Sequence record: NC_028656.1
Strand: one strand, 5' to 3'
Origin: Enterobacteria phage VT2phi_272
Length of the DNA: 64,000 nt
Position numbers: made by a program
Shown here: positions 51,001-54,000 of the stretch, one piece after another
Position numbering within the stretch: position 1 is the stretch's first letter
How the letters are laid out: the number at the start of each line of letters is the position of its first letter

Positions 51001-54000
51001 CAGAATGGACGACTGGCTGTTCGCATAGGCAGATTACGCTGATCAGGAGGTGAGTATTGGAATACGGTTTTGCCATTTATAACAGAAATAACGTTAATGT
51101 TACGGGCGTGTTGACTCCGGTATTTTTCCTGGACAGATTTACAGCGGAGTCTGGCTCAAAGACGTACACGAATAAACCCGACGGGAAATCATTGCAGGCT
51201 GTATGTTGTTTATTTCCCTGGAATAATGTATTTGCGGATCGGAAAGTACCGAAGATAACCATTAATGGCAATACGGTGACGTGGTCGAATCTTGAGCAGG
51301 GTATGGGATCTTATATTTATACATTCTGGGGATAAGTGTCATGTATGGTTTGAGCATTATGAAGCCGGATGGCAGCGTATGGATAAGTCCAGGTTTTACG
51401 CCGCAGTGTCTGATCAACAAAGGCACCATACCGGCGACTGAAAAGTCTTTTTTTAAAACATCAATCCCGTCAGGCAAAAGTTGTTTTTTCTTTATCAGAA
51501 CAGAGAAGAAGGCCGATGTCATGTACACGCATGAACAGATTGATGGATATCATGCACTAAGGCTTCATGTAATTGTCAGGGGAACGAACCCTGGTGTTAC
51601 GACGGTTTATGCTTTCGCGAATATGGTTACTCCACCTTCTGAGTATGGTATCGCCATGTATAACCCGGACGGTGAGATGATTTATCATGGCGAAATGATG
51701 CTGCTTGACGCGAAGTTAATACCTGTTGATATCAAATTTGAAAAGGACCTTGGATATCCATGCGCAATCATGCCTGCACTGGTCGGGTATTATAACTGGA
51801 AAAGAACTCCTTATGATCGACCGATTTATACCACATCCACTGGTGCTACAGGAAATAAAATATATTCCTGTGAGCATTATTCCGGCGGTGCAACATGGGA
51901 TATTCGAAAGCCGTATATAGATAAGGTCTTGGTTATTAATACATCAGTATATGATTAGTTGAAGCGAGTCTTTAATATTCATTTAAAATGTCTAAAAAGA
52001 TGTATTATTAAAAAGTTTAGCGTGTTATCTGAATACAGGATATCTTAAATGAAGAGTATAGCAACACTGGTTGTGTGTGCAATCTCCGGGATTGCCTGTG
52101 TAAATTTATCTGCACATGCAGCAGAAGGAAACCATACAATTTCTCTGGGGTATGCGCACTTTCAGTTTCCGGGACTGAAGGATTTTGTAAAGGATGCGAC
52201 TGCTCATAACAGGGAGACTTTCAGTCATTTCGTCAACAGAAACTACTTTTCTTCATTGGGCGAATATACAGATGGTCGGGTCAGTGGATATGAAGGCAAG
52301 GATAAAAATCCACAGGGCATTAATATCAGGTATCGCTACGAGATAACGGATGATTTTGGCGTTATCACCTCTTTTACATGGACGCGTTCTCTCACTAACT
52401 CACAGACATTTATTGATGTGCAGTCAGCCGATCATACCAGGAAGATTAAGAATCCGGCAGCTTCTGCCAGAACGGATATCAGGGCGAATTACTGGAGTCT
52501 GTTAGCGGGGCCTTCATGGCGGGTTAATCAGTACATGAGTTTATATGCGATGGCAGGGATGGGCGTTGCTAAAGTTAGCGCTGACCTGAAAATTAAGGAC
52601 AATATTAACAGTAGTGGCGGATTTTCTGAAAGCAACAGCACGAAAAAAACCTCCCTTGCGTGGGCTGCAGGTGCACAGTTTAACCTGAATGAGAGTGTTA
52701 CACTGGATGTGGCTTACGAAGGTTTCGGCTCTGGCGACTGGCGCACGAGTGGCGTTACTGCTGGCATTGGCCTGAAATTCTGACCTGTATCCGGTAACCG
52801 TTTACTACCCGCTGTGATGGCGGGTTTTTTATTGCCCGTACAGGGCAAAAACCGTAAATTATGCGTGGGTGCCTTTCGGCTGATGGCTGGAGGGTGAACC
52901 TGAAGGCCTGATGTGGAAAGGCCCCGAGTCAACTTAACGTTAACCCGAGGCCCTAACACTTCGTACCTTAAGCAAGTAGAAGGTTAGCGCCTCTCTGTAA
53001 AAGGAGTCAAGCGCTATGTCGCAAAAATCGCTTATCACCGTCACAATTTGCATGACGGTTATCTTCACCATCTGGATGTTGCACGGTTCACTGTGTGAGT
53101 TCCGGCTGAATTTGTGGGGAGCGGAGTTTGCGGCGTTCTTACAGTGTAAGCAGTAGGAAAACCGCGACGGGGACGAGAGTCCCCGTCAACTGGTTGCTGA
53201 GGTTCAGCCGATATGGCACCCGTTTCAGGTGAGAGAATGAACGATAAAATTCTCTGGTATATGCAGCGTGTTGTGAGAAATTCCCGCAACCCTGAATTTA
53301 TGAATGAAGTTAAAGACGCCTGCCTTAAAAAGCAGGCGTTTTGTTTTGAGGCACCTGATGGCTTTTTGGTGCTGCGTTCTGTGCTCAGTGCTGATGGTAT
53401 CCCTTATGTTCTGGTGTTGCTGGGCGTGTGTACGGGGAGTAACAGCGTTGAGCGTTACCTGCCGGAGGTGAAGACATTAACCCATCTGGCTGGCGGACGC
53501 TGGGCTGAGTTCCATACGGCAAGGCGGGGATTTATCCGGCTGGGAAAACGACTGGGCTTTGAGCGAATGCCGGATGATGAGGATGGCTTCATGGTGTTCA
53601 GGATAGCGGTCTGACTGCTACAGTTTTCATCATTGTGTTTAAACCAACATTGTAATTCACATTCTGACCCTGCTCCGGCAGGGTTTTTTGTTATCCAGGG
53701 GGCCATTATGGGTGGAAGTAAAGGCGGTGGTGATACCAAAGTAAAACCAACAGCAGCGCAAATAGCACAGGAAGAAGTGGCCTGGAAAGGGTGGCAGGAT
53801 TACAAAAATATCCTCCGCCCGGCTGAAGATAACTTCATGGAAAAGGTCGATGACCTGAACAGTGAGCAGCAGTACGACAATATTGCTGGCACCACAAATC
53901 TGGGGTATCAGAAACAGTTTGGCGAAGCACGGAAGGAGCTTGCGGGTAATCTTGCTCAGTCCGGCGTTGACCCATCCAGTGGTCGTTTTAATGCGGTAAT

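Follow-up and report, generated by a model that had tools for sequence, protein, structure and literature searches.

The hok/mok/sok (parB) system of plasmid R1, a plasmid stability locus, is the closest well-described relative of the module considered in this report. It encodes a Hok-family membrane toxin of 52 amino acids (aa), a mok reading frame, and a short antisense RNA that lies opposite the leader of the toxin mRNA and consists of a single-stranded 5' tail and a terminator hairpin. The 5' end of that mRNA alternates between the 3' fbi element and an upstream box, a stable stem-loop is found on its 3' side, and the hairpin targeted by the antisense RNA forms only in the processed mRNA. 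The processing of R1 hok mRNA, and the tac/fbi/ucb logic that goes with it, were reportedly set out by Franch et al. in 1997. A system of the same kind, hokW/mokW/sokW, is known from the Shiga toxin (Stx) phages 933W and Sp5 (PMC8621323); it has an annotated 70-codon mokW and a HokD-like toxin of 51 aa (cluster 35), it has been tested genetically, and partial Hfq involvement has been reported for it. Here, we examine a 64,000-nucleotide (nt) stretch of Enterobacteria phage VT2phi_272 (NC_028656.1), hereafter the window, which is a 933W-like Stx2 prophage whose late region is 99.2% identical to that of 933W. Its positions 52833-53221 very probably constitute a type I toxin-antitoxin module of the hok/sok kind, complete and self-contained, that 933W-like Stx phages carry as cargo and that is distinct from hokW/sokW. 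As a system type the module is ordinary, being of a kind already known.

The toxin gene is a 46-codon open reading frame (ORF) that the initial annotation of this stretch had read as a Hok/Gef-type type I toxin, starting with ATG on the + strand, preceded at 9 nt by AAGGAG, and encoding the motifs SLCEFR and EFAAF. Each of these elements is present as described (Table 1), and the family assignment is borne out as well. In a profile search, the check that the annotation had proposed, the 46-aa ORF matched Pfam HOK_GEF (PF01848) above the curated threshold (33.2 bits, cut-off 22, E = 4e-8), its residues 8-44 aligning to profile positions 6-42 of 42; the lack of such a match, which the annotation had named as telling against its reading, was not what we obtained. 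The peptide has the N-terminal hydrophobic helix and the C..T....LCE....E pattern of Hok/Gef proteins, in the form of C12, T14, L26-C27-E28 and E37, and most of these residues are invariant across the subfamily alignment. According to the text of a recent preprint (10.1101/2025.08.07.668861; 2025-26), the family-conserved residues are M1, the C, the T, the L-C-E and the E, all of which the peptide has. Since 4.5 kb contain 73 ORFs that reach 20 aa or more, the length of the 46-aa ORF is by itself insignificant. It is the profile match, selection and conservation together that lead us to judge the ORF real. Among 10 distinct versions of the lambdoid-type coding sequence, 10 nucleotides vary and 10/10 of the changes are synonymous, a pattern that indicates purifying selection on 53016-53156. 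One lambdoid-type allele (L053:1501-1638) has TAG in place of CAG as its last codon and hence a 45-aa peptide, which is the sole non-synonymous change in that group.

The protein database holds 56 relatives of the peptide in E. coli, Shigella and Salmonella, all of them labeled "Hok/Gef family protein". RefSeq PGAP annotates the ORF under the same label, as WP_000078907.1, and the gene is thus not hidden, as the initial annotation had it. It is in the curated records of 933W, Sakai and phi24B that the hok ORF is unannotated and the gap left empty. The phi24B genome encodes the identical 46-aa peptide at 45784-45924, again unannotated, and its locus differs from that of the window by a 1-nt indel. 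The preprint mentioned above is a catalogue of 32,532 hok loci; its Table S2 lists the exact peptide as 72_1589 (cloned as plasmid LRP157, "high-abundance cluster"), and it also lists a relative of the P2 type described below (72_1621). In its text, 42 of 45 tested homologs are toxic on induction, and 72_1589 is absent from the three that are named as non-toxic; to the extent of that text and table, the peptide is reported toxic. By its authors' own statement, Sok, Mok and mRNA structure lie outside that preprint's analysis.

Opposite the hok leader, where the initial annotation had proposed to look for an antisense promoter, one was found (TTGACT, 18 nt, TAACCT), and with it a terminator hairpin and minus-strand reads obtained in vivo. 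The -10 hexamer is TAACCT in 47 of 48 relatives, with a -35 TTGNNN at 17-18 nt, and the same hexamer occurs in the sokW region probe (PMC8621323). The predicted Sok-like RNA, which the initial annotation had left undelineated, folds at -27.3 kcal/mol with its 5' tail mostly unpaired. This architecture is common to 28 distinct versions, in which the 5' tail is hypervariable and the hairpin carries compensatory substitutions.

This minus-strand RNA is EcOnc53, sRNA108 and the precursor of 24B_1: strand, promoter and coordinates are the same. These three names had already been joined in a review (PMC7873438), in which EcOnc53, sRNA108 of 933W and the 24B_1 precursor are treated as one RNA, its length being given as 67 nt by differential RNA sequencing and Term-seq and its mechanism being called unclear. 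In an Hfq study of O157 Sakai by crosslinking and analysis of cDNA (CRAC; Tree et al., PMC4104026), the ECs1236...ECs1237 intergenic region ranks 65 of the top 100, with reads on both strands (for example 6697/5519 and 10190/5289), and the small RNA (sRNA) EcOnc53 is predicted there on the minus strand of Sp5. EcOnc53 read sequences in the tables of an RNase E study by crosslinking, ligation and sequencing of hybrids (CLASH; PMC5286369) map to 52914-52957 on the minus strand; after calibration by read sequence, the EcOnc53 peak falls at 52925-52977 (-), and the predicted Sok at 52917-52974. The plus strand is also represented in vivo, in an RNase E CLASH read from 53099-53140 that is labeled "ECs1237 5'UTR" (untranslated region) though it is hok coding sequence (PMC5286369). 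The published 20-nt 24B_1 corresponds to the loop of the Sok terminator hairpin together with its 3' arm, and the p24B_1 promoter of PMC4426718 (TTGACT / CGCTAACCT), whose boxes were predicted independently in that work, is the Sok promoter. Further, a published value cited with the 24B_1 work has the precursor bound by Hfq with a dissociation constant of 25 nM. Most simply, 24B_1 is a stable fragment of Sok.

In the literature on this RNA (Nejman-Falenczyk 2015; Tree 2014; Gruber & Sperandio 2015, via PMC7873438), it figures as an orphan Hfq sRNA or as a microRNA like those of herpesviruses, with targets in trans, whereas we read it as the cis-encoded antitoxin of the adjacent Hok. The 24B_1, EcOnc53 and CLASH papers (PMC4426718, PMC10732415, PMC4104026, PMC7873438, PMC5286369) mention neither hok nor sok nor toxin-antitoxin systems. 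A search for literature that joins 24B_1 to hok or to toxin-antitoxin systems, with T1TAdb and the wider literature outside its scope, returned only a 2017 mini-review in which the topics stand separately. Thus, the toxin was already annotated and catalogued and the antisense RNA already published; that they belong together has apparently gone unrecognized. The RNase E CLASH data also contain chimeras of EcOnc53, with the Sok hairpin sequence, and EcOnc44, an RNA at Sakai 1397056-1397116 (Tree/Waters coordinates) and outside the window. Probably, EcOnc44 is itself a Sok of this Hok subfamily, a paralogue encoded in another Sakai prophage, in which case further "orphan" EcOnc sRNAs may also be Sok antitoxins.

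The limits of the module are apparent from its distribution. The 517 bp that follow lom show 100% identity to those of 933W, VT2-Sakai/Sp5 and many other Stx phages, and the module stretch has matches in 196 phage records and in 1675 of 5426 complete E. coli genomes. Relatives with 80-85% nt identity stand at the end of P2-like prophages, directly after ogr. These P2-type copies (for example WP_000078920.1; 72_1621) encode toxins of the same 46-aa subfamily (76% aa identity, ~81-83% nt identity over the module) and have all of the RNA elements in common with the lambdoid copies, but they differ in phage type, in insertion point, and in the sequences of the Sok 5' tail and the sokT loop; their specificity is probably different. 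In all, 91 loci were collected, representing 63 distinct versions of the unit. Similarity between lambdoid and P2-type copies starts at the hok -35 box, TTGCC(C/G), 17 nt from the -10 box TA(A/G)ATT, and stops exactly after GGCACCC at 53221; the transcribed part that they share runs from GGGTGCC to GGCACCC. These edges define a portable unit of ~390 bp with a predicted 355-nt mRNA (52867-53221). The edges and promoters are kept in two unrelated prophage contexts, after lom and after ogr, and the hok -35 and -10 boxes are equally spaced in both despite their unrelated flanks. A consensus promoter scan at a strict threshold called no site at the locus; the promoters are supported instead by conservation and by the literature.

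The predicted mRNA has a minimum free energy of approximately -154 kcal/mol (z = -6.6 against shuffled sequences), and a permissive search with the Rfam sok model (RF01794) gave a full-length match at 52867-53029 (35.6 bits, E = 3e-6). The fold-back elements that the initial annotation had suggested seeking near the ORF are indeed there: the partner of the tac-like 5' end is 53204-53221 when the full-length RNA is folded and 52916-52925 when the truncated one is. RNAalifold, applied to 48 distinct sequences, pairs the 5' end with the box at 52911-52925 and not with the 3' end. The fbi/tac and tac/ucb pairings, which follow the tac/fbi/ucb logic of R1 hok mRNA, are kept in 93% and 98.6% of the alignment cells of these sequences; shifting the partner by 1-3 columns gives 23-66%. 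Despite a hypervariable upper stem, the sokT hairpin is formed by all but one of 21 distinct variants (20 of 21, mean z = -3.7). It competes with the Shine-Dalgarno (SD) hairpin for the UAGCGCC arm, and the two are mutually exclusive; the latter (mean z = -3.4) is present in the full-length and Sok-bound folds and not in the truncated fold, and all four bases of GGAG are paired in 12 of the 14 distinct variants considered. The pairs formed by the downstream box (157-174/263-280 in RNAalifold numbering) are nearly all kept. Downstream of the ORF, the hairpin that the initial annotation had given as an 8-bp stem at 53167-53188 is real, but its stem has 9 bp and begins and ends one base earlier. 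It has two covarying pairs in the alignment of relatives (AU:28/GC:20 and AU:21/CG:19/GC:6), and by analogy with the processing of R1 hok mRNA it is likely the point at which 3'-to-5' trimming would stop, yielding the active truncated mRNA. On the opposite strand, the same stem-loop scores as an intrinsic terminator at 53165-53188 (-), with the stem followed by GGUUUUCC, and could stop leftward transcription into the module. The next ORF (L0129 / ECs_1237 / vb_24B_43) has its annotated ATG at 53213, within the fbi element; an in-frame ATG at 53239, with GAGAG just upstream, may be its true start.

Table 1. Features of the hok/sok-type module and of its upstream neighbor, in window coordinates
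Feature	Position	Strand	Description
lom	52049-52783		directly upstream of module; Pfam Ail_Lom, 110 bits
lom terminator	52807..52832	+	hairpin 52807-52825 and T run; left boundary of module; terminator scan
hok promoter	52833..52861	+	-35 TTGCCC 52833-52838, 17-nt spacer, -10 TAAATT 52856-52861; read from sequence
hok mRNA +1, predicted	G52867	+	prediction
Full-length hok mRNA, predicted	52867..53221	+	355 nt; conserved portable unit
5' tac-like element	52867..52883	+	GGGUGCCUUUCGGCUGA; two mutually exclusive partners
ucb-like box	52911..52925	+	AUGUGGAAAGGCCCC; alternative 5'-end partner; RNAalifold consensus, columns 1-59
Leader mini-ORF, ATG	52911-52937	+	8 codons
Leader mini-ORF, GTG	52913-52987	+	24 codons
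Sok-like antitoxin RNA	52917..52974	-	predicted ~58 nt; 5' tail ~18-20 nt, 16-bp terminator hairpin, UUU
24B_1, published 20-nt "microRNA-size" RNA	52923..52942	-	TAACGTTAAGTTGACTCGGG; sequence from PMC4426718, maps exactly to window
sokT hairpin of processed mRNA	52948..52992	+	presents Sok target; 3' arm GUUAGCGCC; truncated-RNA folds
Sok promoter	52981..53010	-	-35 TTGACT 53010-53005, 18-nt spacer, -10 TAACCT 52986-52981
SD-sequestering hairpin	52985..53016	+	UAGCGC:GCGCUA, CUCU (52993-52996):GGAG (53003-53006)
hok SD, AAGGAG	53001-53006	+	spacer to ATG 9 nt; read from sequence
hok-family toxin ORF	53016..53156	+	ATG start, 46 aa, MSQKSLITVTICMTVIFTIWMLHGSLCEFRLNLWGAEFAAFLQCKQ; cluster 72 (72_1589), RefSeq WP_000078907.1
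Downstream box	53120..53136	+	pairs with start and first codons 53016-53032; folds
3' stem-loop	53166..53187	+	9-bp stem 53166-53174/53179-53187, loop GAGA
3' tail	53190..53221	+	53190-53203 masks Sok target 52965-52979; 53204-53221 is fbi-like 5'-end clamp

Following the R1 paradigm, and with the help of thermodynamic modeling of three states, we can propose how these elements would act together. The full-length mRNA would be inert: its 3' tail would clamp the 5' end (fbi/tac) and mask the Sok target, its SD would be held inside the UAGCGC:GCGCUA / CUCU:GGAG hairpin, and its AUG would be paired with codons 36-41. Slow trimming from the 3' end to the stem-loop at 53166-53187 would free the 5' end, which would flip onto ucb; the sokT hairpin could then form with the UAGCGCC arm, exposing the Sok target and loosening the SD and AUG. 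For as long as the short-lived Sok is made, its 5' tail would pair with sokT, and the duplex, probably cut by RNase III, would release UAGCGCC, allowing the SD hairpin to re-form. Once Sok synthesis stops, Hok would be translated, enter the inner membrane and collapse the membrane potential. Averaged over 14 diverse loci, the predicted probabilities of being unpaired for the Sok target, the SD and the AUG are 0.24, 0.03 and 0.24 in the full-length mRNA and 0.61, 0.13 and 0.37 in the 3'-truncated mRNA, which was modeled as ending just after the 3' stem-loop; when Sok occupies its target on the truncated form, those of the SD and AUG are 0.03 and 0.16. For the SD of the window allele, the corresponding values are 0.01 (full-length), 0.31 (truncated) and 0.01 (Sok-bound). 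The competition between the SD hairpin and sokT is thus a plausible mok-independent route for control by Sok, albeit one with modest predicted effects.

Several observations weigh against the reading of the locus as a complete and functional hok/sok module. The NCBIfam models for HokA (NF007290) and Hok (NF007279) score the peptide at 38.4 and 22.7 bits against cut-offs of 89 (equivalog) and 73, respectively. With matches so far below their thresholds, we regard the peptide as a Hok-family protein and not as the orthologue of any named K-12 Hok, including HokA, whose model is the best of the NCBIfam set and whose C-terminal AAFL-x-CK motif it shares; in the preprint's classification, HokA belongs to cluster 93 and our peptide to cluster 72 (10.1101/2025.08.07.668861, as given in its text and Table S2). 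At its gathering score of 59, RF01794 has no hit at the locus. The Sok terminator ends in three U only, EcOnc53 was undetected by Northern blot in the study of Tree et al. (PMC4104026), and no intrinsic terminator was found after 53221, which leaves either the formation of the hok mRNA 3' end or read-through into the next ORF unexplained. The tac, fbi and ucb elements are nearly invariant, covariation among them is therefore sparse, and what supports them is that their ability to pair is kept, not that compensatory changes occur. Truncation is predicted to open the SD only modestly, and repression of this hok by this Sok is a prediction of the model. Likewise, the Hok product of the locus is a predicted protein, and the toxicity of the peptide is taken from the preprint's text and Table S2, its figure aside. 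Finally, the 24B_1 literature reports trans effects on d_ant and sdhB, which fall outside a cis-acting module.

Some of these observations would suit a decaying, non-functional hok remnant, such as several of the chromosomal hok loci of E. coli K-12 are; the absence of mok, the sub-threshold Rfam and NCBIfam scores, the negative Northern blot in one study and the allele with a premature stop at its last codon could all be taken that way. Across hundreds of phages and genomes, however, the two promoters, the SD, the ORF and all of the RNA elements are conserved and intact; the ORF varies only synonymously, its peptide is reported toxic in the text of the preprint, and both strands yield reads in vivo. 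We consider a decaying remnant highly improbable. The absence of mok deserves separate comment. No mok frame overlaps hok in the ORF list of the window allele, and the leader frames are inconsistent across relatives; neither leader mini-ORF overlaps hok, and so neither is the equivalent of mok. Control could nonetheless take a canonical route, in which a short leader ORF (GTG 52913-52987 or ATG 52911) is translated and blocked by Sok, and in which ribosomes that stop at UAG 52985-52987 open the UAGCGCC arm, making initiation at hok possible 29 nt downstream. ATG 52911 is nearly invariant and has GAAGG 4 nt upstream, the start of the leader frame lies under Sok, the 24-codon frame stops precisely where the SD hairpin begins on its 5' side, and in some relatives a frame of 61-79 codons runs from ATG 52911 into hok. 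Yet the frame, length and stop of the leader ORF shift about as they would by chance: across relatives, the ORF from the conserved ATG ends anywhere between 56 nt upstream of hok and 137 nt inside it, owing to 1-2-nt indels in the sokT loop. Further, ATG 52911 lies within the ucb element, which accounts for its conservation without translation, and the window allele has no frame overlapping hok, whereas mokW is present in the same phage. Translation of a leader ORF as the means of control is therefore, in our opinion, rather unlikely, and a mok reading frame seems not to be required in this Hok subfamily, unlike in R1 and hokW.

A different explanation is that the minus-strand RNA acts mainly in trans, as a microRNA-like 24B_1 or an Hfq sRNA on d_ant, the region upstream of S, and sdhB, and that hok is irrelevant to the phenotypes described. 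Deletion of 24B_1 and its plasmid-borne expression are reported to affect how often lysogens form, how well cells survive infection, the expression of phage genes, and ATP level; the 20-mer binds sdhB mRNA weakly in vitro, Hfq binds the precursor, and some EcOnc53 chimeras with other RNAs appear in CLASH data. The tools used for this work alter hok together with the RNA. The delta-24B_1 deletion, whose homology arms lie at 52765-52815 and 53005-53055, takes out 189 nt: the lom terminator loses one half and the hok SD four bases, the hok promoter and the entire leader disappear along with Sok and its -10 box, and the hok ORF is left behind a scar. The complementing or "overproducing" plasmid, pUC18_24B1, carries 566 bp (52704 to ~53269) and with them the complete module, hok promoter and ORF included. 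In the 2023 study that employed this plasmid (PMC10732415), ATP was lower in plasmid-bearing cells and in lysogens, an effect ascribed to pairing of 24B_1 with sdhB, although binding was <10% at 100 nM. Low-level Hok, as a membrane-depolarizing toxin, is in our view a simpler candidate cause of the lowered ATP. Moreover, the RNA has canonical Sok architecture and can pair without mismatch with the conserved leader of a gene that is intact, under selection and, according to the preprint's text, toxic, and the module also occurs after ogr in P2-like prophages, which are of a very different type from the Stx phages with d_ant. A chiefly trans-acting RNA is thus distinctly unlikely, and a hok/sok module remains our preferred interpretation of the locus. 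Going beyond it, we tentatively raise a wider possibility: that the effects ascribed over ten years to 24B_1, the "first phage microRNA" (lysogeny bias, survival after infection and lowered ATP), reflect perturbation of hok/sok and not microRNA-like regulation in trans; that the subfamily is mok-less, with Sok switching a shared arm from its target to the SD hairpin; and that each 933W-like phage has two independent Hok systems, such that delta-hokW-sokW phenotypes understate the role of Hok in lysis and phage release.

The module differs from its closest relatives in several respects. With R1, it shares the Hok-family membrane toxin and, as far as folding predictions go, the general plan outlined at the beginning: a short antisense RNA with a 5' tail and terminator hairpin opposite the leader, a 5' end with alternative partners, a 3' stem-loop, and a target hairpin confined to the processed mRNA. 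Unlike R1, it is prophage cargo and not a plasmid stability locus, it has no mok frame, its toxin has 46 aa as opposed to 52 (tblastn identity of ~34% over 32 residues), its control by Sok is predicted to proceed through an SD-sequestering hairpin that competes with sokT, and the Rfam sok model matches it only below threshold. Identity of the module with hokW/sokW was considered and rejected: HokW is a 51-aa protein, the window has no match to the hokW primers, and the hokW locus is 12.8 kb away. In 933W, hokW/mokW/sokW occupies 58460-58734 on the opposite strand, with the 5' end of the hokW mRNA extending to ~58786 by primer mapping; this is downstream of the 46-aa module and ~2 kb beyond the window's end. 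No significant nucleotide similarity was detected between the two loci. Since hokW is separate, there are two Hok systems in 933W-like phages. A second one goes unmentioned by Takada et al. (2021; PMC8621323), and the 46-aa module is still present in their delta-hokW-sokW strains. Among phage records, the present locus was found in 196 and the hokW 5' end in 63; although different search modes make the comparison rough, the 46-aa module may be commoner than hokW in the Stx phages sequenced so far. In a ciprofloxacin transcriptome, hokE is the sole hok listed.

As for the genomic surroundings, the initial annotation had placed the ORF among lom and bor. The former is directly upstream; the latter is no neighbor, lying ~17 kb upstream, near 35.4 kb as judged from colinearity with 933W. 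Colinearity with 933W is lacking in the left 25 kb of the window, and an IS3-family element at 32905-34213, known by its frameshift pseudoknot (ALIL, 33762-33878, -), breaks the colinear late region. STnc100 (+) and AsxR (-) are found at 28840-29099, immediately after the 3' end of stx2AB, an arrangement already described in Sp5; we used AsxR as an independent calibrator of coordinates. Two separate pairs of C4 antisense RNA and isrK, at 5429-5611 (-) and 17384-17571 (-), score above the Rfam gathering threshold, which suggests two ant/immunity-type modules. The locus was also encountered, at 76-100% protein identity and on short or isolated contigs, in Xanthomonas pisi (L005), a Planococcaceae metagenome-assembled genome (L006) and a Vagococcus sp. 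(L008); these copies are most likely enterobacterial contamination of the assemblies.

Stx phages drive the virulence of enterohemorrhagic E. coli, and their lysis-lysogeny balance is medically relevant. On one 390-bp stretch of their genomes, two literatures overlap unaware of each other: the toxin-antitoxin catalogues, which have the peptide, and the Stx-phage sRNA field, which has the antisense RNA. It appears to have gone unrecognized that the toxin and the RNA belong together, that their subfamily is without mok, and that what was altered in the "phage microRNA" experiments was a toxin-antitoxin module. Recognizing a single hok/sok module gives 24B_1/EcOnc53/sRNA108 an immediate, testable mechanism. 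It also means that the sole functional study of Hok in an Stx phage, that of hokW, was carried out in a background that retained a second Hok system. Finally, the apparent absence of mok makes this subfamily a natural test case for the control of Hok translation without a leader peptide.

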